In this document: positions 25,372 to 64,000 of the stretch, one piece after another
Layout of the letters: each line of letters opens with the position of its first letter
Position numbering within the stretch: the first letter of the stretch is position 1
From: Convolutriloba macropyga
Taxonomy: Eukaryota
Assembly: GCF_964194025.1 (NCBI RefSeq)
Contig: NC_134474.1
Span: 40,548,001-40,612,000 of the forward strand
Reading direction: 5' to 3'
DNA: 64,000 nucleotides
Program-made: the position numbers and the translations under genes
Notes under the pieces: model-generated
The model's database searches: none
What the model saw: the letters and a program-made list of their open reading frames with translations, nothing else
Told to the model about the DNA's origin: nothing

Positions 25372-25942
25372 TCAATTGTTACACAAACAAAGCATTTCTG
25401 TATTGACGTAACTGAATAGCTGTCAGTATGTATCAGATTCTAATATTTACTGAAGATTTCTCAGGCTCGTTTGAGTGAGAGGCTTAAGATGCCTAATTGA
25501 ACTTTTTATCGTTCTCAAACGAAGTTTGTAGCAAATATATTAGTTCCAAGGTCTTTCAACGACTCGAAAAGGAATATTGGTGTTAAACAGGTTTTCTTTT
25601 CAGCTGAAGCAATTTTGTTCATGGCTCTAATTTTGACTTCTTTCTCCTCGAACACGAAGTGAATGTTCGAGAAAGAAGTCAAAATTCAAATCATGAACAA
25701 ACTTGCTTCAGCTGGAAAAAACCTGTTTAAAACCAATACTCATTTTCGAGTCGTAGAAAGACCACAGAAATAATATCATTGCTACAAACTTTGCTAGAGA
25801 GCGATTAAGAAGTTCAATTAGGCAGATCAAGCCTCTCAATCAAGCAAGCCTGAGAAATCGTCAATGAATATTCAAAGAAGATACATGCAGCCAGTTAGTC
25901 AGTTACGTCAATATACCGAACTTATTTGTGTGTGTAACAATT
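25372..25942. repeat. ~570-bp imperfect palindrome (foldback/MITE-like)
   Basis: CAATTGTTACACA...TGACTTCTTTCTC..CGAACA, short loop at ~25658, TGTTCGAGAAAGAAGTCA...TGTGTAACAATTG. Confidence 0.85.
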
Positions 25943-26344
25943 GCTTCTAGATTAAAAACGGCTTTCAGAAGACCTTCAGGTCTTATCTGCAGATTTATAA
26001 GTTTTACAAAATTTATTTAACTCCAGCTCTTTTGCTTGAGAAATCTAGATCATGATTATAAGCTAAAAAGCATTATTAGAAAAGCATTATTTCAGAAAAA
26101 AATCTTTCAATAATTTAAAGAAGACACAATTGGCAAAAAACGTCGCCTATTTTTCTGTGAAGATCTTTACGTTCTCCTGAAGTTTTCACAATCGGTCCAT
26201 GAATATGGTTATGCATCGAACATAACTTGAACTTTTCATATTTTAACATTTTATAACTTTGTTGCTTACACTGCCACAAGTAAATCTTAGGTTCACTGCT
26301 TAATTATACTAAAATGGAAATTCAGTTTTTATTAAAGGCACGGG

Positions 26345-29300
26345 ATATTTTACTCATTTTCGAAAATTGCAGGTAGACAAAAGGTGAGCTACTTCTAAAA
26401 ATCGTCAACTGTCGAATTACAACATAAGGAAAAAAACCGACATATTATGTAATGGCCAAACATAAAAACCAAAAGAATGAAGCTTGTGCAAATTCCAAAA
26501 AAAAATCTGCTCGAAGACGAAAACTCTAAAACACCAAAATACACGACTGGCATTAACTCCGCATCAGCCTAAACTCGTTGAACACACATTATAGTCTCAA
26601 ATGATGAGAGATAGGAGGAACTGCAAAAAACCACATTGGCAGTTCTACAAATCTACGCCACAACTACTGAATTTAATCGCTGCCAACACGAAAAGCTTCA
26701 AAAATGTATTTATAATTTCTGCTGAAAACGTTATAATTTACACAGTTTCGAAAAAAGAAGTAACACAAGCATTCACTCAGAAATTTATTAAAAACTGGGG
26801 GTTAAATTCTAAGAACCGCCCTTCACACTAAGAATATATGTCACTCAAACAGATTCAGTGAATCGCACATTACCTGTTTATCCCGTTCCTGAGGACGAAA
26901 AGTCCAATGTCAGGCAAAAATAACAGACGAAAAGTCACAAAAGAAAACCAGCTTGTGTGAACAAAGCCATGTCACGGTCAACTCAAACCTAATTTTTATT
27001 CATTAATTCATGCGATTTTGACTGAATTGCGTGCGCGACGTCATTTAGTACTCTTAAAGGAGCGAGTTTTTATGTTCATTCCCTTGATTCAGTTTCTGGT
27101 CGGATGTGAAATAACTCACTCATAATGACCTTTTCAACCTTTAAATCGAGGAGATAAAGTCACCTGAGGGCTTGTCGCTCTAATTGAAGGCTATTTGAGG
27201 GCGGCTCATAGAAGCAGCAATAAGTTATTCAGATTCTTACTCAGATAATAGCACGAGAATTCTTTCTTCCGGTCTGTTTTAATATGTTAAAACTTCAGAT
27301 CTATTGCGGCTGCTTTATGACAATCTGCCTAATCTGTTTTTTTATTCAATTTGCATGATCAGTTCCACTCAAAACGAAGTTTATTAAATCATTTGGCTTT
27401 TTATTTTTTGCAAAGATATTGCCTCATGTTTGACTCCGATTTAAGTTTCAGATGACGTTAGTTTTTTGTGCTCTTTGAAATGATCATGCTGGTTGATTAC
27501 AAAAACAGAGCAGTCCGATTGCCATACAACAGCCACAATAGGTCAGAATTTTCAAAAAATAGCAGAACAGAACCAAAACAAATCTAGCTTTTTATTAAAT
27601 GGTGAGATGCTATATTCTGATGGTAGGGGGTACATAGGTGCCCGGGGGGTAGACTTTGTGGCGAGTTGAGTAGGTGTAGGGGTGAAGGTAACGGGGGTAG
27701 GTGGCGGGATTGTTCGGGGGTTGGTCGGTCGATCTGCAGTTAAGATAGGAAGGAGGGACTGACATGGGAACAAAAACTCTCAAAATGACCTCAATTGTTA
27801 CACAAACAAAGCATTTCTGTATTGACGTTACTGACTATCCGTCAGTGTGTATCAGATTTTAATATTTACTGAAGATTTCTCAGGCATGTTTGATTGAGAG
27901 GCTTGAGACGCCTAATTGAACTTTTTATCGTTCTCAAACAAAGTTTGTAGCAATTAAGTTAGTTCTAAGGTCTTTCTACGACTCGAAAAGTATTATTGGT
28001 GTTAAACAGGTTTTCTTTTCAGCTGAACCAATTTTGTTGATGGCTTGAATTTTGACTTTATTCTCCTCGAATATGACGTAAATGTTCAAGAAGAAGGACG
28101 TCAACATTCAAATCGAAGAAACTTGAAAAAGTCCTTATGAGTGAGGTAAGTCACATCCGACCAGAAACTGAATAAAGGGAATGAACATAAAAACTCGCTC
28201 CTTCAGACTACCAAATGACGTCGCGCACGCAATTCAGTCAAAATCGCATGAATGAATGAATGAACAAAAATCAGGTTTGAATTGACCGTGAAATGGCGTT
28301 GTTCACACAAGCTGGTTTTCTTTTGTAACTTTTCGTCTGTCATTTTTGCCCGACATTAGACTTTTCGTCCTCAGGAACGGGATAAACAGGTAATGTGCGA
28401 TTCACTGAATCTGTTGAAGTGATATATATTTATAGTGTGAAGGGCGGTTCTTAGAATTTAACCCCCAGATTTTATTAAGTTTCTGCGTCAATGCTTGTGT
28501 TACTTCCTTTTTCGAAGTTTTGTAAATTATAACGTTTTCAGCAGAAATTATAAATACATTTTTAAAGCTTTTCCTGTTGGTAGCGATTAAATTCAGTAGT
28601 TGTGGCGTAGATTTGTTGAATCGCCAATGTTTTTTGAGTGCTATCTTTCTCTCATCGTTTGAGATGAAAATGTGTTGAACGAGTTTGAGCTGATGCGGAG
28701 TTAATGCCAGTCGTGAATTTTGGTGTTGAGTTTTCGTCTCCCAGCAGAATTTTTTTTTTGGAATTTGCACAAGCTTCATTTTTTTTTTGGTTTCTAAGTT
28801 TGGCCATTACATAATATGTCGGTTTTTTCCTTATGTAATCATTCGACTTTTGATGATTTTTAAAAGTAGCTCACCTTTTGTCAACCTGCAATTTTTGAAA
28901 ATGAGTACAATACCCTCATAATAACCTTTTCAAGTTTGTTCATGATTCGAATGTTGACATTTTTCTTCTCGAACATTTACGAGGCTTGATCTGCCTAAAT
29001 GAACTTCTTAATCGCTCTCTAGCAAAGTTTGTAGCAATGATATTAGTTCTGTGCTCTTTCTACGACTCGAAAATGAGTATTGGTTTTAAACAGGTTCTTT
29101 CCATATGAAGCAAATTTGTTCATGATTTGAATTTTGACTTCTTTCTTCTCGAACCTTCACTTCGTGTTCGAGAAGAAAGAAGTCAAAACTCACGCCATTA
29201 ACAAAATTGATTCAGCTGAAAACAAAACCTGTTTAACACCAATAATCCTTTTCGAGCCGTAGAAAGACCTTAGAACTAATATAATTGCTACAAACTTCAT

Positions 29301-30300
29301 TTAAGAGCAATAAAAAGTTCAATTAGGCATCTCAAGCCTCTCAAATCAAACGAGCCTGAGAAATCTTCAGTAAATATTCAAATGGAACACATACTGACCT
29401 CTAGTCAGTTACGTCAATACAGAAATGCTTTGCTTGAGCAACAATTGGGGTATTTTGGGAGTTTTTGATACCATTTAAGTCCCTCCTACCTATCTCAACT
29501 GCAGACCAACCGACCTACCCCCCGATCAATACCGCCACTTAACCCCGAACAATACCGCCACCTACCCCCCGAACAATACCGCCATCTACCCCCGTACATT
29601 CAGCCCCTACACCTACTCAACTCGCCACAAAGTCTACCCCCTGGGCACCTATGTACCCCCTACCATCAGAATATAGCATCTCACCATTTAGTAAAAAGCT
29701 AGATTTGTTTTGGTTCTGTTCTACTATTTTTTGAAAATTCTGATCTATTGTGGCTGTTGTATGGCAATCGGACTGCTCTGTTTTTGTAATCAACCAGCAT
29801 GATCATTTCAAAGTGCATAAAAAACTAACGTCATCTGAAACTTAAATCGGAGTCAAACATGAGGCAATATCATTGCAAAAAATAAAAAGCCAAATGATTT
29901 AATAAACTTCGTTTTGAGTGGAACTGATCATGCAAATTGAATATAAAAACAGATTAGGCAGATTGTCATAAAACAGCCGCAATAGATCTGAAGTTTTAAC
30001 CGCATAATAAAACAGACCGAAAGAAAGAATTCCCGTGCTATTATCTGATTAAGAATCTGAATAACTTATTGCTGCTTCTATTAGTCGCTCTCAAATAACC
30101 TTCAATTAGAGTGGCAAGCCGTCAGGTGACTTTATCACCTCGAACTAAAATTTGAAAAGGTCATTATGAGTGAGGTAAGTCACATCCGAAAAGGAACTGA
30201 ATCAAGGGAATGAACATAAAAACTCGCTCCTTTAGAGTACAAAATGACGTCGCGCAGGCAATTCAGTAAAAATCGCATGAATGAACAAATATCAATTTCA
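26345..30300. repeat. Overlapping inverted duplications: ~26345-27127 vs ~28135-28910; ~27005-28075 vs ~29165-30290; ~28980-29450 inverts ~25372-25835
   Basis: Direct reverse-complement matches. ORFs 26601(+) and 28402(-) give near-identical translations on opposite strands. Confidence 0.85.
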
Positions 30301-33900: not shown

Positions 33901-35335
33901 CTCAGCTCAGCAAGGAACAAAGTTTTGTTCAGGAAAAATTAAAACTTTTAAGCATGAATTTTTGTCTGATCGTTCAGATAAAAATTTCATATTGACCCTT
34001 ATTAGTTTAATCAACTGATGTCGTTTTCTTCAACAAGATATGGTGTCTAGATTTGGTATCTTCAAACTAGATATGGTATCTTCAAAAAACAGACGCAGCT
34101 ATTTGAAAACCAACCTTTCGAGCAGTTTGAACGCTGACGCAATACTACAATTATCTCAGTATCTTGGCATTTTGTTTTAGTTGTTTATTTTGCAAGTTTA
34201 AAATCCAAAAAAGTAGAACCTAAACCTCGTAGCTTTTTGAAAACTACATAGCAAAGTACTCTTGATGTCAAAACATATTATGGAGCAAAAAGAGAAACCA
34301 CCTTAGAAAGTAGATTAAGTTCGAATAAAATTGCACTTTTTAATAATAGATAAATTGCGCTTAAAGAGTCATAATTTTCACACATCTCTCCTCAAAAATG
34401 TTTATCAAATTTTACAATTTGTTTAACAGGTTCTGATTTCTAATGGTGACCCAAATTTTCTTCATTCGCTAAAACGCGAAAAACCACCCCGCCAAAGTTT
34501 TCTAGCAGGAAAAGATGGCAAAAAAAGTTCTTTCCAATTTGGACAAGATACCATAGTCTACACTTCAGTTAAACATTAAAGCCCGTAAAAATTAACAAAA
34601 ATTTCGGCTTTGTTAACTTCTTTTAGATAGTTAATAAAAGTTGAAATTCCAAACAATAATGCAGATAAAATACATAGCAAGAATATAAAATCAGAGGCTG
34701 CAGCTTCGAACTCGGAACTCATAACAGGGAAAAACTTTGAAGTCGCTATTATCAGAGCCACAAAACGAAGCTCCCTTGAATAATGCCACTGAGTGTAAAT
34801 CTGGAAAACTAATGGCAATGAACCTCGCAAAATTAAAGAGAAAACTAAATTCACAAAACACCTATGGACATTTTTAAACATTGTCCTTTTTGTAATCCAA
34901 TTTTGCAAACAACTTTTCCTTTTCTGCAATCTACTCATCTCTTGATGTTATTAATCGTGAATCCGTTTGCCTAAATTACTCGTCACTGCAACCGAATATT
35001 TTTATTTCTTTTTTTCTAATTACAAACTATCCTGAAACTTCAAATTAGAAATATTATTCGATCGAACAAAATAACTTTGAAAAAGATTTGAAACTCATTT
35101 TTTGAAAAAGCCTTGAAATTTCCTGATTATCCTTTCTGACATTTCCTCCTATCTTTATTTTAATTATCCTCATATCTGAGAAAAACCAACAGACGCAAGG
35201 ATCCAGTCCCACTCCAGCAAACACTTTCGCAGAGGAGACAACTTGACATGTATCTATCATAAATACAACTTGACATATATCTATCATCTATCATAAATGT
35301 GATCATGTACCTTAGTTAGGGTGATGAATCATTTT

Positions 35336-35336
<1 letters not shown>

Positions 35337-35389
<53 letters not shown>
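35337..35389. repeat. (GA)n microsatellite, ~26 units
   Basis: Seen directly. Confidence 0.97.
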
Positions 35390-35391
<2 letters not shown>

Positions 35392-38300
35392 AATTTATCC
35401 CGGCCCATAAATCAAATGTACAAAGAAGGATAATCAAAACACGACATAGATCACAATCAAACATCGAAAAATAAAAGCATTTGATATATCCAACAAACAA
35501 ATTGAAAATTTATTCAAGATTATGTTAGACTGGGAAAGGACGCGCAACGAGGTCCTTAGACCTTCTTTCCAGCGTGCCCTGTAATACAAACGTAAGAGTG
35601 GATAAACTTATTTTTTTTTCAATTTAATATTCTTGCCATTTTGTAAATGATTTCTTTTTTAGCAACCTTTTAACTGCTCGAACTTATTGCTCCACCAGAG
35701 CCCGAAGATAAGTACTTTAACTACATCGAATTGAAACTTGTTTACAGCAGAGAGCAACGTTGCAAGTTAAAAATTGTTGTGTTTTGTCAAATGTTCCTAT
35801 GAAGGAGGAAAAAGTGACGTGACAAAAACTGTCTTTAGAAATTGAAAAAAGTGATTTTTGACAGTAGAAATCGAGTCGCGGTGCCTTCTACGAAGGCATG
35901 GCACAACATTTTGGGTATAATTTTCAATTATTTTCAAAGAATTTCCAGAGTTGCAGGGATGTGACAAATTATCCAAAAAACACATTTCGAACGAGATCAT
36001 AATTCCCTTGTAATTGTAAAAAAAAATTATAAATAACAAAGCAACAGGTATATCGTGATCGCTTTATTTTATAGTTGGAAAATAATCTTTGTCAGCTCTG
36101 TATTGCCAAGAATATAATTGTCTTTTATTCTATGAACAAGGTTGTTGAATATATCTTTATTCATCATGCATAGTTGCGGTACGACATTATTTTGGCGAAG
36201 TATATTGAATAGCTTTGCGCCACGATATTTCAGCGAAACCCTTTGAAACTTATTTTTAGCAGCCGGCATAGCCATAACTCCAGTTGAAGATCTCCTGGTT
36301 AAATACGCATCTTGATTTTTAAAAGTGAAGATATTATTGAGATACGATTCTGAATGAAGTGATAGCACTGATCGAAGTACAAACTTTAAGAGCTCATAAA
36401 CGTACAGCTCAAGCACGGTAAGTACACCGTGTTTCAACAAAAGAGGAGATATGCTAACTTTAAACCGTTTGAAGAAAATTAGTCGGAAAATTTTCCTTTG
36501 TAATTTTTCGATATCGCAAAGATTTGAAAAACTTGTGCAGCCATATATCAAGACTCCATACTGAATAAGTGGCTTGACATTAGCCTCATAATAACGTATT
36601 AAAGTACTTCGTGGTACATAATGTCTCAACTTTGAAATGATACCACTGTGCTTCGTTAGTTTAACCACCACTGTATTAATATGATATCTGAACTGCAGCT
36701 TATAATCAATATATGATCCTAGATAGCGACAATTATCAATTTTAATAGTAGAATCATTTATGGATATACCAATGTTCGAGATAGAACTAGAGGCACCTGT
36801 AATCGAGAAATTTACTTGTGATGTTTTTTAAGGTTTAGTGTCAGCTTATTAACGCGTAACCATCGAGATAACGATTCCAAGTCATCTTTCAATTCCGAAA
36901 TTGAACATTCAAGGGCGCTCACGTTCGTATCGTCGGCAAATTGGTAAACGTCTGCTTTTTTACAAGCTTCCGAGAAGTCGTTCACGTATATGAGAAACAG
37001 GAGCGGTCCTAATACTGAACCTTGCGGGACGCCATAAATTAATTCACGCCAATCCGATGAAAAACCATTACAAACGGTACGTTGCGAGCGACCGGTTACA
37101 AAACTAAGAATCCAATTTCTAGCATTGCCACATACTCCGTAACGAGTCAATTTCTTCCCTAAGATGCCATGATCAATTGTGTCGAAAGCTTTCTTTAGGT
37201 CCAGAAAAACTGTACTGGTAACTGTTCTTGATTTCTAATTCTCTCGCAACCGCTCAGTGAGTTCTGCAATCGCATCAATCGTTGAATGCTTTTTCCTAAA
37301 TCCAAATTGTTTTGAATAGAGAAACTGGAAATGTTCTAGGTACTGATAGATGCGATTGTACATTATCCTTTCAAAAATTTTACTAAATACAATGAGCAAT
37401 GATATGGGTCGATAATTAATAATATCTGCTTTACTATCCCCTTTATACAGCGGAATTACTTGGGCTCGTTTTAGGTCTTCCGGAAAAATACCTGTCTTAA
37501 AAGAATTATTTATAAGCTGAATTAGAATTGGCGCTAAACTCTCGCTGCAGCTTTTCACAACAAGGTTGCATATATCATCTAAACCCGAAGAAGTTTTATT
37601 ATCGAGGTTGTCAATCGCCTCTCTGACTTCTAATGGCTTTGTTGGAAACAGCCATAAATAAAAAGACTGTTCATTCGCTTCCGAGCGATCGCCTATATCT
37701 GAATTCGTGCTATCGTCCTCCGAGTTAGTGGTGGTGTGATTCCTATTCAATTCTACAGCAATATTGCTGAAGTAATCATTCAAAATATTAGCAATTTCTG
37801 ATTTAGATTGCACTTTTCTCTTCAGTACTTAGCTTTATCTGTTCAATTTTAATCTGCTTTCTTTCTGATTTTCCTTGCAGTTCATTTAATAATTTATATG
37901 TTTGCTTAGGATCATTGATACAGCGTTCGAATCTTTTGCTATAATAATTTCTCTTAAGCTTCTTTAATGCTTTCTCAACTTTTAATCTCGCCCTTTAAAA
38001 TTCCTTAAATCTGATGATCGGCTAGTTCGTTTCCATTTCCGATGCAAATAATTCCTCGTATAAATTAGATTTTTCAAATAATTATTTACGTATTTAGGCT
38101 TGGAACATTGATTTGATTTAAATTCTTTATAGGGAGCAAATTTATCAATCAATTCAATGAAAATTTTATGGAAGGTGTTGAAATCCGATGGAATAGTTTG
38201 AAACTTTTTAGCGACTATCGATTGAGGTTCTTGAATTCTATATTTATCATTTAGATAAGATAAATCGCGTGCTCTTGATATCGTGTCATTCGTTTTTCTA

Positions 38301-38690
38301 AAATCATTATGATTTAAAGTTAGTAAAATTGGATAGTGATCGGTAATGTTTTGTTCAGTAAGAATATCGAGAACTAAATGATTGAAGCCCTTTGCTATAG
38401 CGTGATCTAAACAAGTATTTGAAATATTCCCAAATCGTGTTATTTGGCCATGTATAATCTCAAAACCATTTGACTCTATAGCTGATAAATACTTTGATGA
38501 TGCATTGTTTTTTTTCAAAGTATCAATATTCATATCACCCATTATTATTACTGGCATTAAAGATTGAAATGACTCAAGAACTTCATCAAGTCGCTCAATG
38601 AATTCCATTTTATTCGATCTTGGTGGGTTGGTTGTAAACAACAATAAGCACAAAATATAAGCCTGATATTCAAAAAAGAACAAAGCGCGA
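35337..38690 (-). mobile_element. 5'-truncated, frameshifted CR1/L2-group LINE (APE + RT) ending in a (TC)n tail
   Basis: APE motifs GDMNID, TCLDH, TDHYP; RT motifs NYRPISLL, QFGFRK, FLDLKKAFDTIDH, GVPQGSVLGPLLFLIYVND, FADD. The 3' UTR ends ATAAATTAAC(TC)n. Confidence 0.9.
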
Positions 38691-41149
38691 AGGAATATAA
38701 AACGGTATAATAGAGCTCTTTCTATACCCTAAAAACGTTACCAATAATGCAGAAGTCGAAAAAACAAGCTGTCCTCATATGGTTGTCACATAACTTAAGT
38801 ACCTCTTGAATCCTTTACTGACACCAAAGTGGATCAATTTTGTTTTAAAAAATGATAGTTTCAAGCTTGTTTGATATCTCGCACAGAAAGAGCAAAATTC
38901 AAAAAGTATCCGAAGACTAATATTCAAAATATTATACAATTGAGCAGAAATGCCGCCTAATTGGTTACCTAGTGCTACTATAGCACCAAACAGCGAAAGA
39001 CTCTAGCCTTAAATCTTCCACAGTTACGGCTCAAGAAAAGCTAGGCAATATTGAGAAAATCCCCCAGTTCAAATAGTATACACTCAGCGAGCTTCCCAAT
39101 GGTACCAAACGCAAGTTCGAAAACGGAGTAAATTCAAAGAAAACATACGCCTTGGTTGTAAAAAAATCAAAATTGTAACAATCAGAACAAGCTATAAGAA
39201 AGCGTTCGCGTTCACTGTTTAACAGAGAGAACAAAGACTTGATTAATCCCAACAGCAAAATTACTCCGAGATAACACATCGTTAGTTGAAAAATAAGACT
39301 TAATTGACCTTCTACGGAATTATACAACAATAGCATACAATAAAAACATTGGTACAATATCAATAACCATAAAAACCCTATAATAATAATGGTACAAGTT
39401 AGCTAGAGTTAAAAAAAATGAACTACATTGAAAATTAAAAATGAACTACATCTGCATCTGACGTACAAGGTGTAACAAAACTTAAAATCATATTTCTTAA
39501 TTCTCGTGCCATTAGAAGACTGACAATCGCTATTTTTGATTTCAATTCAAGGTCGAAAAAAAAAATCGATCTCAGATTAAGCGAACCCGCGTTATTTATA
39601 ATACGATCACCTTTGAAAAAGTTTTTTCTATGTATCTTTTAGCTCGCGTAAGTGCTAAACTATCTCGGTCAAAAACCTAAAGGTTCAAACATTTGAGTCA
39701 AGAATTAATAATTGTCAAGAGGGATGCAACTTTAATTGTCAGCAATTGCTTTAAAGACATGTATGTCAAATTCGACATGTTGATATTATGTACGCAGAGT
39801 TCGATAGTTTCAGCACGTAGAAGTAGACAGTGTAACCAACGGAACATCGCAAGCTATGGCCATATAGTTGTTCCAAACTTTGTGGATCAAAAATTTGGTG
39901 GAGATAGGCGAGAATAAATTGAGTTTAACTGAACGAAGGTTGAAAAGAACCACATGATTCAAGTAAATGAACGATAGGCAACCTTTCACTATTTTTGATT
40001 GTACATGAGGACTCGAAATTTAGATATCTCAATAAATAGAGCCAATAATGTATCTCGCTATAACAAAGAAACACAGTATCAAATGACGTTCTAGTAAAAA
40101 GTAAATAATCACTTTTTGCCCAATTAAAAGACAAGAAGTTACAAAAAGCCAATAACCGTAGCGAGCCTAGATTATTTTGAACTCTATAGATTTAGTTGCG
40201 TCTGTTTTAAAAGATAAATTGAAATAAATTGCAAGTCGCAACTGGAATTAAGTCAGAAAGGAAACAAGTTAGGTTTGGCGAGTTAAGCATGAACCGTTAG
40301 CGTTTCTAAACTTAGAATTCTTCGTCTGTTTAAAACTACATATATTCCACAGTTTGCGGTATTCAATTTCCACATACCAAATCCAAATCCTTTAGAATCT
40401 ACAAATGAGCAAGCACTTAATGTTCTTTTAAGCAGCTACTAATTCGACTTCAAACACGCTTTGAAAACAACAAAGTGAGCGGACGGTCCCGGAATAATCA
40501 AAATACATAGTGCGCAGTTATTCAAACTAAATTATGAATTTAATTTTTGTACATTATACACTTGATCATATAATATATACTTAAGATAACAATCACATGC
40601 AAACAATTTAAGCAAAAAGTTTCTAAATTATAAGTTGTAGATTTTTAACTAGTATAAGTTAACATCTATAATAAGTTAAAAAAATTAATTTCTAAAATTT
40701 AGACAAAACTACTATATTTTAAATTCTTTCAGAGCTAATTTAAAAAGACCAACCTCTAAAGTTGGCAAATATCGAAATAGGTTAAAGTATACTGGGCCTT
40801 CAGATGGTGAAGAATGCGTAATTGCTTTATTAATTTCTGAAAATCACTTGGTACGAGAAAAAATTCACAACTTATTAATTTCTGAAAACTCCATCTCTAT
40901 AAGTGTTAATTAATTATTAATTTCTTAAAATTCCCTGTCTGAGAAATTGAAATCCTTCAGCTGAATAAACTTAAATTCCAACAAAATTTAACAATTTTAA
41001 ATTTTTCAAAACGCCATAGACAAATCTGACAAGAATTGTGAAACAGTGCATGATATTAAAAAAGCTCCAAATCTTAGCCAAAAGTTTTCTAGCATTGATG
41101 TTTTTCGGAAAAATAACACAAAAATACGGTTTAGTTAGTGCTGTTTCAG

Positions 41150-44184: not shown

Positions 44185-46314
44185 CTTTAGTATTTGAAAT
44201 TAATTACTAGGAACTTAAGTTTCCAGTGGAAACGTAAGCTCCAAATAATTAAATTTATCAAGACAGGCCAGCTGGCTCCTGCGAGTAGCTCAGAATAAAA
44301 GTTCCAACCAATTTTCAAGCGGGTCGAGAAAGCTTACATTATTCTGAGAAAATTATAACTATGTGAAAAATCAATAACCAACTTGCAGCAACTTTTTCGG
44401 AGAAATTTTCCTATTGTTTCCTTTTGTAAGAAAATCAGCTCAAAAATCCAACATCATCATATTTATAAATTTCAGCAACAATTTAAAACATTTGCAATTA
44501 GTTTATTTCGCAATAAAACAGTTTATAAAAGAATTTTTTCATAAAAGGAAAAAAACTTCAGAATCTTTAGACTGAGCTATGAATTGTCAAGAAATCAAAC
44601 TTGAATTCACTTATGCGTTGTATTGCAACAAACATATCACATGATAAATTTATCTTGCAAAAAATTTGCAGTGTTTGGAAAACAATGAACAATCGTTAAT
44701 ACTATTAAACAACTATTACACAACCGTTATACTAAATAAAAAGTCGAAAACTCGACCTAATGTCAGCTATGCGATGTTTACCGAAAAATAACTATTGTGC
44801 GACTCAAAATTTTTGTGATGTTTCAACCTTCAAAATTTAACAATTTTGGGATCATTACAGTATTGGCCAATACAATCCTTCTGACTAAATCAACTGGAGA
44901 GCATAGTTTTCACAGATAAATTAAATTAATAGAAATTAAACTCACAAAAAAACTTAAAACTATTTTCTCAAATATTTCGTTGCTTTTGAAATGTCAAAAT
45001 CTTGTTCAATTTCATTTGCTATCATTCAAACGTTGATAATCACGTATCTACTAAGAATGGCTTGTCTTCAGCTTAGCAAATGAGAGGAAAGTAATTTAAA
45101 AATTCAAGTGTCCATGTCTTCAGGCTTTTAGATAATTCGAAAAAATGTGTAATCAATTATGCCACGTTCGTTCGTTTCTCTCATTATTAATTTAATTTTT
45201 TTATTGAATTCAATGTTTTGTCAATTTGTTATTGAAAATCTTAATTAGCCGGACGACGTGATTACTATGGTTATCTTAGGAACCGAGGAACAAAAATAAT
45301 GAAGTTAAAGATCTTTTCCATTTTCAAACAAAAGGTCGTCTTATATCTTGTTCAGGTAACCAACACTCCTAACCGATGGGAGAGGATGATTGATAAAAAC
45401 TAATTTGAGCGTCAGCAGAACAGAAAGTTGTCGATTTTTCACTCCAGAAATTTTGTTTTCTGTTCTTAAACATTTCCAGTATACCCTATTTGATTAACTC
45501 TTAAAGATTTTGGTCAAATTTACTTTTATATCATCTAAAGGACAGGGTTTTACCCACTTCTTTACGAATTGGAATAATAATTTTGTTTTTTTCCCGTTTA
45601 AACATTTTCATCAATCGAAGAACGTTCATAAAAAAATCCAAAAATAACTGACTAACTTCAAGCAAATTGCTCTCAAACGACCGGCGAGCGATTGGCTTCA
45701 GTAGTAGCCAGTTGGGGTTAGGTATGATAGCAATGGGGAATGGAAGAGGATTAGGAGGGCTGGACAAGACGTGGTCCAAATCGGCAAATCGTACAAAACC
45801 ACAATGGATAAGAGGGTGGACGGGGCAACTGTTGGGGCGGGGTAAGTGCAGGTGACTGAGGGCGGGTCAAACTTTTAAGATTACAGACCGTCCTTCACTT
45901 CAGTAAACATCCTCCTCAAAGAAGCTTCGGTGTTCGGTGAATTGTGTACTAAGAGACTAATAAGGCGTAACACTCTAAAAGAACTTGATGCCCTCATCGC
46001 GTTACCTATTTATACCGTTTTTGAGAACGAAAAGTCAAATGCGTCAGACGAAAAATCTGTCAAGCGAAAAATTGCATTAGAAAAGACCACACAACTAATA
46101 TAATCGCTACAAACTTCCTTTGAGAGAAATTTGAAAAATGCGGATGCCAAAAATCAGCATATGGCTTTTAATATTAGTCAATTGTTCACTTTCGTACCAG
46201 AAGAATATTCACTTTAATCAATATTTAAGTAGAGTTAGATATACTTTTTTATCTCACTTATCGCTTCATATTTGGTCATTTGTGTAACAGTTCATGCGCA
46301 AACAATACTGACAA

Positions 46315-46989
46315 AAGATAGCTGGAAAGATTTTCAAGGTTAAACAAAAAGAAGGGAAAGGAAAAATAAATCGACAAACATTGAACTAATTACTCTCGAA
46401 CGACTGCCGAAGCAATCAATTTCGAATGGCGCATAGGCTAGAGAAACTTTTATGATGCTAAAACTTTTGACTGACGAGGGGTTCGGACCCGCGCCCTTAG
46501 ATGGTAGTCGGAAACATTATCCTCTACGATACACGGACTATATAAGTTCACCGCTTACAATTGGTTTTATTTTAGCAACAGAATTAATTTCTGAATGCGA
46601 GTAACAAAAATTACCCGAAAAATTAAAAACCCAAAGCTGAAAAACTCAGTTTCACTCCTTGAGCGACTTTTTTCCGCTTTGGGTTTTTAACTTTTTGGGT
46701 AATTTTTGTTACTCGAATTCCGAAAATAATTCTGCTGCTAAAATAAAACCAATTGTAAACGGTGAACTTACATAGTCCGTGTATCGTAGAGGATAATGTT
46801 TCCGACTACCATCTAAGGTCGCGGGTCCGAACCCCTCCCAGTCAGAAGTTTTAGCATCATAAAAGTTTCTCTAGCCTATGCGCCCTTCGAAATTGATTGC
46901 TTCGGCAGTCGTTCGAGAGTAATTCGTTCGATTTGTAATTTCCTTTCCCTTCTTTTTGGTTAACCTTGAAAATCTTTCCAGCTATCTTT
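46315..46989. repeat. ~675-bp palindrome; each ~330-bp arm contains an outward-facing tRNA-like sequence
   Basis: Arms AAAGATAGCTGGAAAGATTTTCAAGG... and ...CCTTGAAAATCTTTCCAGCTATCTTT with a ~20-nt spacer near 46655. A-box-like TATCGTAGAGG and B-box-like GG(T/TT)CGAACCC-type motifs at ~46782-46834 (+) and ~46478-46530 (-). Confidence 0.88.
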
Positions 46990-49048
46990 AGTTCAAAAAA
47001 GACACCTTCAAAATAATCGTCTCAAACTTCGTTCAAGTTCAAAAGCAATTAAATATGAAGTTAAGGCTCCCAAGTTTTCCTTAAAAAAGCTTTAATTAGT
47101 TATTGCAATTATCGCGTGTATAGTTAATAGCGTACGGTTTTGTTTCAATTAAAATCCAAATCAACAAATGAAAATTTTTTGGTTAAACCAAGCAGTAACT
47201 TCCAGTAGAACGTAACCTCTTTTTCCAAAATTATTCATTTCTATTTTAATTCAAAAGCCGCATACTTTGTGCAACTTTGCCTTAAAATCCAATTCAGTGA
47301 TACCTAACTCCTGTTTTGTCAAACATTCTCAACAATTAGCAAAAACTTCAGAGAAAAGAAAAAAAGCAATTACAGTTAGAATCACCTTCCCTTTTTTAAA
47401 TGGTTTTTAAAAAATTGGTTTCAAAATATTCATTCTACGAAGCTAATGATATTGAGGCTACAAAAATATCTCTGCCGTCCCCAAGGGTGCACCTTTTTCC
47501 TTCGAAGTTCTCTATCAAACTTTTTATATGTTCGCTCGCTTTTTAATTAGCATCAGAGTTTGTAATTTCAAAATAGAAGTCAAAACTAACTTCGAAGTTT
47601 AAAACCGCCTCGCATATGTATTCTGCGACTTTGAAAAAATACAACAATTAAGACTAAAAAATCGTGGCTGGTAGTCATCAAAGGCGATTCTATTTTCCAT
47701 TCTAAAAAGATTTACAAAGCCATCCGATGCGATTTTCGTTAAACTCCGTTAAAATCATTAGTGTATCTTGCAAAGTAAAAGACCGCATAATTACTAAAGC
47801 TATTTTTAAATCGAGACTGATGTTACGCTTTTTGTACTTAAAGTTTTTCCAAAAATTTTTAAACTTATTTGTTGACGTCTTTCAAATTAGGCTTCGTGAA
47901 AAATTAAACCTATCGCCTACCTTATATTTGCTTTGAAGCGGGAAACAAATTAACTTGTGTAAAAGAAGTTCAAAAAACTACGACAACGATGATGATGCTG
48001 TAGACAGATAATACGCCTCAGATGTGCATAAAAATGAAATCGTGCCAATTTTGAACCAAAAAATCAAAATTGTGATCAGCTTCTTTAAAAAAGGAGGGAC
48101 AAAAACAACTGCCCAAAATATTTTCGAGACAACAAAATAAATATCCTAAAGTTGACATGAACGTCAAGACTTATAATATCAATGCCAGTTTCCATCAAAT
48201 GTTTCTTTATCTGCGATTCGAGAAATCAATGATCAGAAAAATTATTGAAAACAATAGTCTTCAACAGGGTAAAATAATAGTCTTCTACAGGGTAACCAAG
48301 AAAAAAATGTTTACATGTAGTGCTTTTTACAAACGGAAGCAGTGTTTTACTCGACTCAGTTTACAAAGTCAGAAAGGAGTCCAAACAATTATGAATTGAC
48401 TGGTATGGCTACTTATTACTTGCAAGAAAAACACCAAAATCTCCTAAACATTAGCAGGGCAAATTTTCCGCAATCCTGCAGGCTTAATCTGAGAAGTGAA
48501 TACCGCAAAACTTCATTTTAACACTACGTCATCGACAAAAGAATTACAACACCTGAACACCAACTCTAAATCGTCCACTGAAACTTAAAGGCGCCGAAAA
48601 TTTTTAAGCTGTTCGTTTTCAAATTAAAACTACCTCTGGGTTTAGCAATGATTCAGAACCAACTTGCGCTGAGGATCAAAACGGGACCGTTCTTAAATCT
48701 CGGAGGAAATTATTCGTTGCAAATTTAATTGACGAATCCGGTAGATAGTCGAGAATATTTATATTCCTAAAAACATTGGCCAAAGAACGACTAATATGTA
48801 ATATATCTACCCTTATAATAGGTACCAGCCAAAAGTATTGAAGAAAAACACAAGTTTAGATTAACTGACGACAATGTCTGCCCTGGACACTCAATCTTCG
48901 CTTTTCATACATGCGCTCAATTTTTAAAAAATAAAAAGCAACTTCAATGATACTCAATTGTTTTTAATTACCCATTATAGCTTAAAAAACAGCTTTCAAA
49001 TTTGTGATTCAACATCACTGCCTCATTATCAAAATATTTCCACACAAC

Positions 49049-56574: not shown

Positions 56575-57459
56575 TTAGAGATCAATCTCTGCCTTGTCGC
56601 TCTCGTTGCTTCTAACTTCATCGGGAAGCTGTCTGGGTCTCAAATTGCTCTGATAGTCAGGCTTAAAACGAGTGACTGCCGAGCTCGGAGGTGCCATTTC
56701 AACCTCAACGCCGCCCTGCGATTCGTCATCTTCATCATCAGAGTACTCTTTAATGAGGAGGAGGGATGCAATGAGCACAACCAATTGGAAGAAGTAAATC
56801 ACGCTTGATATACCTCCCACGACACTCATGTATCTCCAGATAAGATCCTTGGTTGCAGTTAAACATCCTTTATTGTAGTACAAATCAGGTTCCAACCGTC
56901 TAACACATCGCGACCGGAGACCTTCGTCTGAAGTGAAAGATTTACAACAAGAGGGAGGTATCAATACGGGATAATACTCTTGTTGCACGTAAGCGCTGAA
57001 ACTCCAATCTTCAGCTTTATGACTTCCACAGCATTTCCATCGTGTTTGGAAGTCATCCCACATTTGAGTAAGAAATGGGTACTGATCTTGACCGTACTTA
57101 TCCATGATTTTAAAAATCTGGTCACTAAACTTGTCCTCCCATCTCCTGCGCATTCCGAAGGGTGTAACCACAGCACTTATTTCAATAATAAGTAGAACAA
57201 TAACCAAGCCAACGAACATTTTCAACAAGGACGGACTTTCTGTCCAAGCTCCAATCAGACCAATGCATGCAACTGCGATAATTGCAATTGACAGACCACA
57301 CAAGAAAGCAGAAACAGCAGTCACCGTATCCGTATCCAGGATTAACATAATTGAGGAAGGATAAGACATTATGTAGATTGTAGATATGAACATTCCTAAA
57401 CCGCCGAGCAGAATTAGGATATGAACCACAATTGAGCCGATCTTTAATGTTTCAGCCAT
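56575..57459 (-). CDS. Tetraspanin, intronless (an in-frame upstream ATG exists at 57570)
   Basis: Four TM segments; CIGLIGAWTES; EC2 with CCG, PPSCC and GC. Confidence 0.93.
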   Translation of the reverse strand: MAETLKIGSIVVHILILLGGLGMFISTIYIMSYPSSIMLILDTDTVTAVSAFLCGLSIAIIAVACIGLIGAWTESPSLLKMFVGLVIVLLIIEISAVVTPFGMRRRWEDKFSDQIFKIMDKYGQDQYPFLTQMWDDFQTRWKCCGSHKAEDWSFSAYVQQEYYPVLIPPSCCKSFTSDEGLRSRCVRRLEPDLYYNKGCLTATKDLIWRYMSVVGGISSVIYFFQLVVLIASLLLIKEYSDDEDDESQGGVEVEMAPPSSAVTRFKPDYQSNLRPRQLPDEVRSNESDKAEIDL

Positions 57460-58172
57460 TCGTTTCTGAAAAAGGGCTTCAATTACAAAAAGCAGGCCAA
57501 CAAAGTTCCTCAGATCGTCACGTGATCTCAAAGATCTTGCAAAAGAAAAGTGTAGTGAAAATGCGGCCATTCAGTAGTGTAGCCATGTTACCCTGATAAA
57601 AAGAAAATATAAATATTGCCGTCTTAGGACGGACGCATTGCTCTTATACAATTGGCGAGGGTTCACTTTAGTAGCAGCTCCATGAAATTCACTCCACGAA
57701 ATTCTGCTTAAAGATCAAGGACTGCAACCTGAGTTTATCTCGTTACTGAGGGCAAAAAATTAACTCGATCAGAAAAAAACGATCGAGCTGAAAGTTACTT
57801 CCATATAAAACAACTAATCGCTGACATATAGAACGTGTTTCTACAAAAGTTGTGTTTTGAGGAATTTCGGATCAACTGCTGTTTTCTTTGTTTTAAATGA
57901 ATCGACTGAAAGTTCGAGGAATAAAATTGAGTTCTCGAAAAATGATAATACTTAAGGAAAATATCTATTGTTTCATGCCCCTCCACCCCTAAGGCATATA
58001 ACTATTACGTCTGCAGGCGCTATAATATCCATGCACTTTATGCTGATACGGTTTTGGTGGTTGGGGTTTTCTCAAGCACTTTACTTCTCGGGTGTATGCG
58101 CACTAGGAATATTCAGCAAAAGTTACAGTTAAATGAAATTAAATTTTAGAAATAAAAATTTGTAAGAAGAGT

Positions 58173-58613
58173 TGTTACAAGGGTGAATATGAAGGAATTT
58201 TATTGCTTAAGACAAAGGCAGCTGAATTTATGAGTTCAGATATTGAATTATGGTTGCTGTGGTCATATCAATGGTTAATTTATCTTGAAATATTTTGTTT
58301 CATTTTTCTCTAATCGGTTTGGGATTTTCTCATGGTTATTCTTACCCGCATGGGTCCCTGTTACTTAAACTAACAGATAACAAGTTTAACTGCGAATCCC
58401 GTCAAGTACAAATATTCCTTGACGTATCCCGTCAAGGTCAAAATCGGCGATGATTCCCATCATATTGGGATGCCTCTCCTTTAGTCTGTTAAAATCCAGT
58501 TTACTCTTGATTACAATCTTTTTCTGTTGCTAAAATTTGTGAATTTTTTGAACGGTGTTTGTATTGTATAATTTACAAGTTTGTCATGCGTTCTCTTCTT
58601 AGGGGTTACTACA
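58173..58613 (-). repeat. 3' LTR of element 2 (441 bp, TG...CA)
   Basis: Starts TGTAGTAACC directly after the PPT AGAGGGAGGAGG (58614-58625) and ends AATAAA...CCCTTGTAACA. Confidence 0.72.
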
Positions 58614-58667
58614 CCTCCTCCCTCTTAAATCCCATGACTGTTCAACTCACTCAGAAGCTTTTTTTTA

Positions 58668-59342
58668 TTATGATTCCTCCCGACCACCCTTGTCCGGACG
58701 ACACAGCAAAGATAATGTTTTGAAGTAATCCAGAATTGTGAGGGTTGTTGCCCCCTGAAGCAGGAACAGAAGGTCATATAGCTTTAGAGGACGACTTAAA
58801 GGTCTTTGTGCATTTATTGCTTCCAGCCTCCTCTGGATTACTTTTCTTGACGTCTGTTCCATTTTCACCCTACTTCCAAGTTTGTTGATACCCTCCTCAG
58901 CATTCTCCAGCTCTCGAGCTAAACACTGCCGCTCATCTACTAGAGCGACACATTCCCTTGTGTTACCTTCTGCTGGGCTTCTAGCATCTTCTAACTATCT
59001 GTTCAACATTTCAACCTGCCTCATGCAGGACTCCCGCTGATTCTCAGTTTTTACAAGTAACCTTTTTGTCTCTAAGAGTTGCTTATTAAATCTTTGATCT
59101 TCTAGCTTTAACTGCCGAAGCTCCTCTTCGAGCCGAGCCCCAGCAGATCCCTGCATTTTGCTCTCGTTTATTTTTCTTTGCTGATTTTCAATTTTCACTT
59201 GCAGCTCATTCAGCTGCCTCATAATGATTGGAGCTCCGTCCACAATATTGGGCGGCTGAAGCTGCGTCAAGGTTACTACATATTTTTTATTGGACGTCAC
59301 TCTGACAATCCGATAAACCTGGTGCCTGACGATGGACTCCAT
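58668..59342 (-). pseudogene. Accessory ORF: coiled coil + C-terminal DnaJ/J-domain
   Basis: ORFs 58995-59342 and 58668-58868 share a frame and are split by one TAG. The end reads LYDLLFL..GAT..TI..YFKTLSLLCRPDKGGREE. Confidence 0.68.
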
Positions 59343-59559
59343 TCATTTCGTAGAGTTCGGTTATATAATAACAGTCGCCAATCTTTGGTTCTGTCATTCG
59401 TAATTATTACGAAATAAAAAAAGTCCAATGTATCAATTTCAAATTCGGTTACTTCGGGGACAGATTTAGCTTTTTTTGCTTTAACAACAACAATATTTGT
59501 GTCACCAATCCACAGTTCACTTGTGGACCTTTTCTTCTCAAATTCTGTTCCCTCGAATG

Positions 59560-61400
59560 TTAATTGGGATGATGAAAATAACATCGTTCCACCATTGGAT
59601 AAACGGGTTGCAGTGCAAGTACATGATTGGAGCCACAGCGTAGCATATCGCTTGACAGGAACACACGCATGACACAAATAATGACTTTTAAGCCGCTTAG
59701 AATAGTAGTCAAACTTATGGTGACTTCCCTGGACACAAGCCAGATTTGTTTCATTTTACTACAAAAGTAAATTAAAATTAAGAGTTCGTGCCACTAGTGC
59801 CCGTATCTGGAGTCCATGTTAAGATATTCTAAGGTTTCATGTTCATATAAGCCCCATTGTCCCAGTGAAACCTCTCTTCCAGTTATTGTTTTACTCGAGT
59901 GTCTTAACTTTTGGGCTGTCTTACTAAGTTCAAGGTCATCATCATTGAACAGCCCTTCCATTGGTGCGAAACTAGATCAATTGACGTTAACTCTGTGATT
60001 GGGCATTTATTCGGTCTTATCAATCAGATCTAGTCGTTGGCCATATGTTATCCATGACCCGTTCTGCAACTCAATCGCGTTCGGGTGCAAAGAGTTGCAA
60101 TTCGTTATTTCAAAATTTCTATACAACACTTTGGAAATAGGATCCATGTATCCTATCCGTTCTGAACTGTTGTCAGAAGACACCCTAACTGGCACTTCCT
60201 CGGTACAAAAAGTGTTTTCTATGACACGTAGAACAATTTGAGCGCACTTATGGACATAATATAATACACCAGCTCTTTCGGCGTGCAATTTGAGGGCTTT
60301 TGTTTATTTAAAAGGACTTGGTGCAAAATTCCATTTATTAGTGTAGCTAAAATCATAGCTCTCCGCAGTTATTCTACTTGAAAATTTAATAGCTCTATTT
60401 TTTCAAATTTTCGAACATAGCTCGACAATCCCACACAAAGAGTTGAAATAGCTTTGTGTCCCTGAGATTTTTCTCAGAAATATCTGCTGGTGAAAAATTA
60501 CGTTCCTTGATCCTAAAAAGTTCTTTTGTGTAATATAAGTATCTGTGGCATGTTTCAAAAAGTTAAAAATTGTCTACCTGTTTGGTCATTTTTTACCTGA
60601 ACTACTAAATTTCTTTTTCCGTCTAACTTGCTGGTTAAATACTTATTTTTCCAGCGTTGACTATTTTTGCTATTCGCGAGTTAAAAAATTTAACTATTTT
60701 AGACTTATTTGGTTTTGTATCTTGGTCATAAATACTTTGTACTGAATCTAATTCAAATGTATCTCCTCTATAATTGCTCGCTCTTGTTTCAGGGGTATTT
60801 ATATTATAAACAAGTTCCTTCAGTTTTGTCCCTAGTTTGAATGAGCAAGGTTCCGGTGAAAATTTCAGCATTTATTATGATGTTATTTGTTTCTTTTCAA
60901 CTTTTGGATTGATCTAGTCCACGGATTAGACATAGTTTATTTCTTCCTCAGGTCCACATTTCTTGAATGTTTTGGCAATTCTGAGCAAACTCTTAGTCGC
61001 TTTCGCCACCAACCATCCCATTAAGTGTTTTTGGGGAACTGAATTCAAAGGGGCACTGAATTCAAGGTCACCGAGTCTCGACAACAACAGTTTGTGTCCC
61101 TGCTAAAAATTTTGGCAGACTGAATCCTTTAAAAGGTGATACGTTTGATTTATTTGTATTTTCTCGTTGAGGTATGTTGCATCTTCATATCAAACAATTT
61201 TTTCAGCGCAGTAACTGTATATGCGGCTCTGTACATGCAGTAATTTAACTTAATCTTGCTGTTCTCAGATTAGATGAGTCCTCCTTGTTTTTTGGTTTAC
61301 CTGCTCCACGTTGATACTTGAAATTTCGATTTTTGGTCCGTTCAGACATGGCAAATTTTTGCGTCTGCAAAATAATCTCAATTTTTTTCCTTGAAAAGTT
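59560..61400 (-). pseudogene. env: env: class III (herpes gB/chuvirus G-like) glycoprotein remnant
   Basis: AERAGVLYYVHKCAQIVL..FCTEEVPV..GYMDPISKVL..NCNSLHPN..NGSW; then EGLFNDDDLE (~59935-59960); then hydrophobic C-terminal segments. Confidence 0.62.
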
Positions 61401-61949
61401 CTCTTGAAAACAAAATAATCTTTCAATTTTTGTGGTCTGGTTATTCGCGATGCACTTCTTGTTTGATATCGTCGTTAAGTAACATTCTGCGAAGTCGAAG
61501 CCGTGCTTCTATTTGAAAATTCTTTGCCTTCACTTGTTTCGATTGTTTCCACCAGGCTATCCCAGTTCTGTTGTTTGTCTTCTTTGCGCGCAGGTGCATC
61601 TTTGTGCTTCTGCTCTTAATTGTGTTAGTAGTTGTGAATTCTCTTAGACTCCCACCCATTGGTGTTTCAAAAATTTCTTCTGAGCAATCTCATTGTGAAT
61701 TTCAGTACTAGGGATAATTTGACGATTGTTCCCTTCAGGAATAACTTCTCTTCTTTCTGTGTCATTTAATTTCGGAGTGACTACTTTAATTTCTACAAAA
61801 TCGTGGTCCTACGTAAGGTCGTTTTGTGGTATTAGCTTGTTGCCTTGTTAGTTTCTTTTTTATCAGTGATAGAACTTCTATTGTTAAAACGCTTGAGTCA
61901 ATCGTGGATTTTTTTACTCGTTGTTTGTTGTCTACTGTAAAAGAATTTT

Positions 61950-63022
61950 AATTTCGTTGCTTGAACAGTTTTTATGGTGGGTTGAACGCCCTTAATAAAT
62001 CACCCATTTCATATTGTGGTCCATGTTTGCTACGTTCATTGAAGATTTCTGGTTTTCCTTTCTCCAAGTTCATACTTTACCGTACGAGTTCATGGAACGA
62101 TTGTAGTTCGTCTTTCAATTAACCAATACAGTCACTCAAGTTTATGTAGGTTTTGGTTTATATTGTTTGATACAAGCAATCAATTGGCAGAGCGCATAAT
62201 CGTCCGAAAAGGAGATAAAAAAGGGCTGTACTTGGTTACAGAGTGAACTAATAATCATCATTACTAGCGGAAGGTAATCGCTCCAGGTGTTGTGATGATT
62301 ACCCACATATTTTCCAAGACTATCTTCCATTGTGCGATTAGTACGCTCAATCATTGCGTTTCCTTGACGATTATAAGCTGTTGTTGATGTGCTGTTAATT
62401 GCGAGCTTTTTACACATGTTCTTGAAAAGATTCGACATAAAGTTACTGCCCTTGTCACAATGGAGATTTGCCGGAAAACCAACCCTTGAGACCCATTTGT
62501 TTACGAAGGCCTTAGGTACCATTGAAGCGTCTTGGTTGCTCTATGAGAATTGCTTCATACCATTTTGCAAATCGATCTCCAATTGACAGAATGTATTTCT
62601 TTCAACTTGACTCGGGTAAAGGTCCCATTATGTCCAAGGCAACTTGCCAAAAAGGGGCGAGATGGTTTCTAAGTTGTCAGGTTGTGTATGTGTCTGGTGT
62701 GGCGACCTTATTTGACGGCATATCTCGCAAGCTCGTACAATTTCCTGAACATCCGTTCTCATCTTGGGACCGTGGAATCGTTCTCGAACCCGATCAAATG
62801 TCATAGCCATACCAAAATGTCCACAATTTTCATGAATGAAAATTAGAATTTTATTGAAAGTGATCATTGATTAGCTATTTGCGTAAAGTTGTTAGATTCG
62901 TCAATACGATTGTTTCTCTTACCTAACTCAATTTTTATTCATAAGCTTCTGAAATCAGTTCGAGGTTTCCATAATGCCCATGAGGCTCCCGCCATGCTTT
63001 TCCTTTGAGGGCGTTTCCCGCT
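61950..63022 (-). pseudogene. pol: Gypsy integrase remnant of element 2
   Basis: HHCC zinc finger and DDE core in ORFs 62628-62867 and 62142-62522. Confidence 0.88.
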
Positions 63023-64000
63023 AACAATAACCAAGCCAACGAACATTTTCAACAAGGACGGACTTTCTGTCCAAGCTCCAATCAGACCAATGCATGCAAC
63101 TGCGATAATTGCAATTGACAGACCACACAAGAAAGCAGAAACAGCAGTCACCGTATCCGTATCCAGGATTAACATAATTGAGGAAGGATAAGACATTATG
63201 TAGATTGTAGATATGAACATTCCTAAACCGCCGAGCAGAATTAGGATATGAACCACAATTGAGCCGATCTTTAATGTTTCAGCCATTCGTTTCTGAAAAA
63301 GGGCTTCAATTACAAAAAGCAGGCCAACAAAGTTCCTCAGATCGTCACGTGATCTCAAAGATCTTGCAAAAGAAAAGTGTAGTGAAAATGCGGCCATTCA
63401 GTAGTGTAGCCATGTTACCCTGATAAAAAGAAAATATAAATATTGCCGTCTTAGGACGGACGCATTGCTCTTATACAATTGGCGAGGGTTCACTTTAGTA
63501 GCAGCTCCATGAAATTCACTCCACGAAATTCTGCTTAAAGATCAAGGACTGCAACCTGAGTTTATCTCGTTACTGAGGGCAAAAAATTAACTCGATCAGA
63601 AAAAAACGATCGAGCTGAAAGTTACTTCCATATAAAACAACTAATCGCTGACATATAGAACGTGTTTCTACAAAAGTTGTGTTTTGAGGAATTTGTGATC
63701 AACTGCTGTTTTCTTTGTTTTAAATGAATCGACTGAAAGTTCGAGGAATAAAATTGAGTTCTCGAAAAATGATACTACTTAAGGAAAATATCTATTGTTT
63801 CATGCCCCTCCACCCCTAAGGCATATAACTATTACGTCTGCAGGCGCTATAATATCCATGCACTTTATGCTGATACGGTTTTGGTGGTTGGGGTTTTCTC
63901 AAGCACTTTACTTCTCGGGTGTAAGCTGAAGAAAAAAATTCAAAATTGCGCACTAGGAATATTCAGCAAAAGTTACAGTTAAATGAAATTAAATTTTAGA
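63023..64000 (-). pseudogene. Near-identical duplicate of 57196-58150: tetraspanin upstream region and 5' half, truncated in TM3
   Basis: Colinear match from AACAATAACCAAGCC onward, with a few SNPs and one 23-bp indel (~63924-63946). Confidence 0.95.

Follow-up and report, generated by a model that had tools for sequence, protein, structure and literature searches.

Does an envelope-carrying retroelement also encode a protein that recruits host Hsp70? Standard accounts of LTR retrotransposons list gag and pol, with env in some cases. The question arises from a 64-kb stretch (the window) of the 1.18-Gb genome of Convolutriloba macropyga, in which a preliminary description had placed a coiled-coil and J-domain gene between the env and the polypurine tract (PPT) of a decayed LTR element. 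We refer to this gene as ORF3.

The minus-strand frame at 58668-59342 is as first described: it contains a single internal TAG (residue 116, 58995-58997), ends in LYDLLFL...LSLLCRPDKGGREES with CRPDKGG at 58683-58703, and sits between env remnants and a purine tract followed by an LTR. When a natural ORF3 from a young copy was used as tblastn query, residues 21-241 (the rest of an N-terminal beta-barrel, the coiled coil and the first half of the J-domain) aligned to the main frame at 58674..59336 (minus strand, as are all parts of the element; 70% identity, E 4e-88). The coiled coil lies at about 58806-59222 within this frame, and the J-domain remnant at 58674..58781 comprises helices I-II and the loop, with RPDKGG at 58683-58700. 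The ORF at 59297-59677 had been suggested as the frameshifted N-terminus, which proved incorrect: its middle part (59545-59423) is the C-terminal tail of env, 68% identical to residues 650-689 of young-copy env, and the ORF holding this tail spans 59297-59755. The true 5' end of ORF3 starts at 59397 in a third frame, where residues 1-25 (the start of the barrel domain) were recovered at 59326..59397 with 60% identity and a frameshift after them. Upstream lie a decayed env of the Monjiviricetes fusion type (class III, gB/G-like) at 59423..61379, identified by tblastn and by PF24664 (E 1.3e-7 on 60010-60303), and a decayed 3' pol with the integrase at 61403..63022 (rve E 0.0012; tblastn to gag-pol residues 1106-1672). 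Downstream lie the PPT at 58614..58626, found in the sequence and at the equal position in other copies, and the 3' LTR at 58021..58613, which starts with TGTAGT and ends with GGATATTATA; these ends agree with those of the paired LTRs of young copies. About 9 kb upstream, the neighbouring stretch holds an LTR that shares 79.8% identity with the window LTR across 401 nt and is assumed to be its partner.

The window fragment scored 12.5 bits (E 0.17) against the Pfam DnaJ profile, below the cut-off of 27.8. This poor score results from the deletion of helices III-IV, as about 105-110 nt are gone between 58675 and 58666 relative to three other copies. The window copy is an old, dead relic of ORF3, with a frameshift, a TAG, RPD in place of HPD and the second half of the J-domain deleted. 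Contigs from three of four sequencing runs cover 58787-59043 with no differing letter, all from a single study that is possibly the source material and hence not independent. The relic now lies within a recent tandem duplication with a period of about 5.85 kb, whose unit (57196..63022) contains the 3' half of the element along with the 5' portion of a tetraspanin gene. Its 99% twin lies at +5850 (99.1% over 4872 nt) and runs past the end of the window, and the joint stepping back 5850 is present in contigs of two of the four runs. The tetraspanin frame (minus strand, 56575-57570 and 62939-63397) is intronless and follows the LTR immediately; its duplicated 5' part is fused to pol sequence at 63022/63023. 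The LTR may affect tetraspanin expression.

To judge what the gene looks like when intact, we turned to the other copies of the same family (family A). The young copies have the layout LTR - gag-pol - env - ORF3 - PPT - LTR, with LTRs of about 617 nt that are 98.4, 98.7 and 99.8% identical at the three loci where both are whole. Gag-pol has 1686 codons with zinc knuckle, protease, RT, RNase H and integrase, and env has 689 codons, a PF24664 (Monjiviricetes fusion) match of 52.7 bits, above the cut-off, and a hydrophobic segment near residue 590. With its paired LTRs, PPT and pol order protease-RT-RNase H-integrase, family A is, as placed by domain order, a Ty3/gypsy LTR retrotransposon. ORF3 of a young copy (P0002) is an open frame of 283 codons, 280 residues from the Met, just past the env stop. 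The Pfam check that the window copy fails is passed by this protein, as its residues 205-263 match DnaJ with 50.9 bits over the whole profile. An env-ORF3 fusion as the normal form was rejected, since the env stop lies 16 nt ahead of the ORF3 frame in young copies; one database protein (P0023) does fuse the two, and we read it as a decayed copy.

Our genome searches give lower bounds on copy number: the DNA search returned at least 44 matches (40 scored of 451 candidates) and the protein search at least 150 (150 scored of 1020 candidates). A tree of 50 ORF3 copies separated an old group, which includes the window copy, from a young group. In order to avoid selection by the J-domain itself, the 30 best env matches were taken as the copy set. 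ORF3 followed env in all 30, confirming that the coiled-coil and J-domain gene between env and PPT is present in other copies of the family. HPD, which reads RPD in the window, was intact in 26 of the 30, and a pattern test found an open ORF3 frame of at least 279 residues in 12. Sets picked with J-containing queries gave HPD in 29/29 and 16/16 copies, figures that are biased by that choice. Among 18 old copies only 10 retained HPD, as expected from decay, yet this count is not supportive. Old copies read on as CHPDKGG...IYDKYG, and 12 of 13 fragments of other old copies matched PF00226, four of them above the cut-off, so the DnaJ likeness of the window fragment is not due to chance. Head-to-tail arrays of element 3' ends were also seen, at L036-L038 (G000:C10:58955749-58962700), L010 and L024, their repeat units measuring about 1.8, 0.7 and 1 kb.

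Next we asked whether ORF3 has been under selection, using pairwise Nei-Gojobori net divergence between the old and the young subfamily (18 and 25 ORF3 copies, respectively). The net dN was 0.089 and the net dS 1.09, giving a dN/dS of 0.081 (bootstrap on a subset, 0.06-0.12); by part, the ratio was 0.025 for the barrel, 0.13 for the coil and 0.055 for the J-domain. Comparison of 13 long old loci with the 30 env-selected copies yielded 0.080 for ORF3, 0.023 for the barrel, 0.131 for the coil and 0.062 for the J-domain. For 13 old versus 12 young long loci, the values were 0.061 for integrase, 0.187 for env and 0.081 for ORF3. Within groups, dN/dS was 0.3-0.7. Estimates of dS near 1 are imprecise, and the conclusion on selection is independent of the exact value. 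As judged from codon divergence, these ratios show purifying selection on all three parts of ORF3, and the N-terminal beta-barrel, missing from the preliminary description, is the most constrained of them. ORF3 is thus very probably a selected accessory gene. The net dS between the subfamilies climbs towards the 3' end, from 0.18 in integrase to 0.42 in env and 1.0 in ORF3, which suggests that the 3' module bearing ORF3 was exchanged between element lineages. Such an exchange would suit a host or generic client no less than a Gag that had evolved together with ORF3.

The three-part build was also apparent in an AlphaFold2 model of ORF3, made from a 17-row alignment (mean pLDDT 89), with strands at 9-42, a single helix of 139 residues at 59-197 and J helices at 206-279; the pTM of 0.37 leaves the relative placement of the three parts undetermined. 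The predicted J part superimposed on the Sis1 J-domain (Z 11.2, rmsd 2.3, 75 aligned residues), indicating a predicted four-helix J fold. Model residues 2-54 matched Tudor, PWWP, KOW-like and other SH3-like barrels about equally well (Z 7.3-7.8, rmsd 1.3-2.4, 47-53 aligned). An SH3-like (Tudor/PWWP/KOW-like) barrel is accordingly what the model predicts for the N-terminus, and as its matches tie, they reveal a common fold and no function. In neither family A nor family B (see below) did ORF3 contain a membrane segment; the maximum hydropathy was 0.5, and hence no membrane anchor or signal is predicted.

With regard to the affinities of the J-domain, the best of 37 listed PDB matches by sequence were the J-domains of Sis1, DNAJC5 and DNAJB/A. 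The polyomavirus T-antigen likeness that had been proposed is without support, as no T antigen occurs among these 37 matches and cellular Hsp40s score best; the 50 best viral structures likewise include none by name (seven rows being nameless). The J-domain of ORF3 is C-terminal (205-263 of 280) and followed only by a short helix. A class A/B Hsp40, which has an N-terminal J-domain, a G/F region and client-binding domains, was therefore rejected, and ORF3 is class C by build. In a quick J-domain tree from a short alignment, 12 element-type rows grouped together (SH-aLRT 89) apart from 15 host rows; five unlabelled database rows fell inside the element group and intron-split host genes were missed. 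Given the modest support and these missed genes, we name no donor of the J-domain. The top 18 DnaJ matches in the genome included no host gene with the barrel-rod-J build.

A second family (family B) was found when the genome was searched with a distant ORF3 homologue. Among 19 distinct loci of this family, gag-pol lay upstream of ORF3 in 18 and env remnants in 17. Its ORF3 occupies the equivalent position, is about 27% identical to that of family A and matches DnaJ with 60.5 bits (cut-off 27.8). Identity between the families was 78% for RT, 63% for integrase, 30% for env, 46% for the barrel, 20% for the coil and 36% for the J-domain. The family B env matches PF24664 with 41.6 bits, above the cut-off, and has no C-terminal hydrophobic segment above the threshold. 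Variants within family B were even across codon positions (singletons 64/56/58, shared 6/7/12). Between env and ORF3, family B has a tract of 150-500 nt of imperfect tandem repeats of about 40-80 nt (e.g. L102 7629-8049, element orientation), whereas the corresponding gap in family A is only about 25 nt.

Homologues were also found outside this genome. A protein library clustered at 50% contained full-length ORF3 homologues at about 30% identity (P0153, P0162, P0174, P0137, P0157 and P0194), in which the N-domain and HPD are shared and the rod differs in length; the loop also occurs as HPDQGG and HPDAGG. The homologous proteins span 197-316 residues, the rod varying in length while both ends are kept, and eight of nine outside homologues scored 42-60 bits on PF00226 (cut-off 27.8). 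The best full-length genome matches of P0153 and P0298 were only 38% and about 30% identical, respectively, indicating that these homologues stem from other genomes. The P0298 cluster has 20 members, of which the 15 listed ones come from contigs ranging in size from 58 kb to 1.2 Mb, a scatter as expected for a repeat. Two metagenome scans revealed no ORF3 relatives, the viral scan gave only matches of J-domain length (nine loci), and the ESM Atlas gave no usable match for the barrel, P0162 scoring only 0.80-0.81. Longer fused forms of ORF3 were not found in the search, which is weak evidence.

Signals around the gene point to how it might be expressed. An acceptor-like TAG|G stands just ahead of the ORF3 ATG in 13/13 young and 5/7 old copies. 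Pyrimidine-rich AG sites are also present upstream of env in both families and, in family B, upstream of ORF3. The leader carries a donor-like AA|GTGAGT at 17 of 20 loci (6/7 in family A, 11/13 in family B), a site that was sought after the idea had formed and that occurred in 125 of 1000 shuffled leaders. In family B no clear in-frame start codon was seen before the barrel, and the leader supplies none at most loci. These signals hint that ORF3 may be expressed from a spliced subgenomic RNA.

What might such a protein do? We favour a reading in which ORF3 would be an adaptor that delivers host Hsp70 to the Gag-RNA particle of the element itself and thereby aids assembly or uncoating. The barrel would capture the client, the long coiled-coil rod would space and dimerise the protein, and the HPD of the C-terminal J-domain would stimulate the ATPase of Hsp70, which would in turn remodel the client. 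Several full-length Hsp70 genes are encoded in the genome. It is established that HPD of J-proteins stimulates the Hsp70 ATPase and their other parts deliver the client (PMC3486835; PMC11720896). That ORF3 activates host Hsp70 is likely, going by its sequence. The identity of the client is a far more tentative matter: the barrel fold is common, and the element's own particle is a possible client that we put forward because J-proteins such as auxilin are known to remodel lattices. Auxilin is a class C J-protein in which a client-binding part and a C-terminal J-domain aim Hsc70 at a protein lattice. Outside the J-domain, its resemblance to ORF3 is a functional analogy only.

The main alternative, which we hold less probable, is that ORF3 counteracts silencing, its Tudor/PWWP-like barrel docking on Piwi/Argonaute or on marked chromatin and its J-domain having Hsp70 dismantle or mis-load the complex. 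The best barrel matches do include the Tudor domains of PHF20, PHF1 and TDRD3 and a PWWP domain, although Z values under 8 may just reflect a common fold. The dS mismatch between integrase and ORF3, suggestive of a portable module, would also suit this role, as would the C. elegans host J-protein that is reported to be required for Argonaute-Hsp70 contact and miRNA loading (PMC11194074). The barrel, however, is almost frozen (dN/dS 0.02). Host-defence antagonists are often fast-evolving. The broadest version of this idea, in which an old lineage of enveloped retrotransposons in several host genomes would carry a dedicated counter-defence protein whose Tudor-like reader and rod direct Hsp70 against complexes that silence through small RNA or chromatin and so take them apart, seems unlikely to us; if true, ORF3 would be a counterpart, in a retroelement, of the accessory genes found in complex retroviruses.

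It is improbable that ORF3 merely acts as an Hsp70 decoy, which would bind the host chaperone with no client to serve and shift the stress response to the benefit of the element, as phage Rki does on DnaK. Such a decoy would have no need for a long rod or for a barrel more constrained than the J-domain, even though HPD is retained in ORF3 copies and RB43 Rki is reported to be a functional J-protein that is no generic co-chaperone and stabilises sigma32 (PMC3486835). We consider it quite improbable that the barrel was copied from the integrase C-terminal barrel and binds DNA or the integration complex, with Hsp70 stripping the complex after strand transfer. The strand pattern of the barrel is similar by eye to the C-terminal region of the element's own integrase, Integrase_p58_C matched one of five barrel sequences (E 0.17), and the top hhalign position fell inside that region; the hhalign profile test was nevertheless not significant (probability 0.03%) and hmmsearch found no such domain in 5/5 pol proteins, and the barrel as an integrase C-terminal domain was rejected on these grounds. 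Finally, that ORF3 is a functionless captured fragment of a host gene is very improbable and largely refuted by the selection result, as the net dN/dS of 0.08 spans about one synonymous change per site, a second family retains the gene, 27% identical, and no host gene of its build was among the top 18 genomic DnaJ matches, against which stand the broken state of the window copy and many others (12/30 with a long open frame) and the even codon-position variants of family B.

Several features of these elements have precedents, since gB-type env in gypsy elements, extra 3' ORFs and viral J-domains are already known. The errantiviruses that Chary and Hayashi describe with an HSV/gB-type env (PMC13524379) resemble family A in having LTRs, a gypsy-order gag-pol, an env after pol that is of the class III type (probably so in family A) and many near-identical copies, but family A has an extra conserved gene past env. 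The main text of that paper contains 'DnaJ', 'J-domain', 'Hsp40' and 'accessory' 0 times, and its seven supplementary files contain 'DnaJ' and 'Hsp40' 0 times. Bdelloid LTR retrotransposons likewise have a family-specific extra 3' ORF, typically expressed from a spliced message (Rodriguez et al., PMC5408684). In contrast to family A, where the extra gene comes besides env, the bdelloid ORF3 is GDSL, DEDDy, coiled-coil or TM and non-env, and the accessible part of that source makes no mention of DnaJ, J-domain or chaperone. 'DnaJ' has 0 occurrences in the available text of PMC8557442. The polyomavirus T antigen shares with ORF3 a J-domain with HPDKGG, that of T antigen engaging Hsc70, but as described in the text consulted it forms the N-terminus of a helicase/Rb-binding protein, whereas that of ORF3 is C-terminal on a rod (PMC11720896). 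Phage RB43 Rki is, like ORF3, a small stand-alone J-protein of a mobile genome that acts on host Hsp70 (an action that is predicted for ORF3), but it is a bacterial phage protein and the available description contains no barrel-rod build (PMC3486835). Within the open-licence PMC and bioRxiv literature, a coverage that stops short of Repbase reports, subscription journals and bioRxiv supplements, we found no LTR element with env for which a J-protein gene had been described. With ORF3, env-carrying retroelements would join polyomaviruses, giant viruses and phages among the mobile genomes with a J-protein of their own. The gene would represent a fourth function, present in two divergent families and under selection as tight as that on integrase, and its small soluble product offers a way of asking why a retroelement needs host Hsp70, be it for assembly, uncoating or escape from silencing.

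The window contains several other elements. A second decayed gypsy-like element lies on the minus strand at 14300-23430, with RT/RNase H and integrase matches. Its env-like region (15565-17541) gave no Pfam match, and no ORF3 match was found in this element; by eye, the region looks F-type, with an RVRR site, then a hydrophobic stretch and, late in the region, a further hydrophobic segment. Long inverted repeats of the foldback or MITE-like kind are nested at 25200-30300 and 46311-46992, with arms of up to 435 nt (96%). At 34576-39402 (minus strand), endonuclease and RT matches mark a decayed, LINE-like element. As to intronless frames, a BNIP2/CRAL-TRIO frame of 651 codons lies at 896-2851 (minus strand), and several of the genomic Hsp70 and DnaJ genes also show long unbroken frames.
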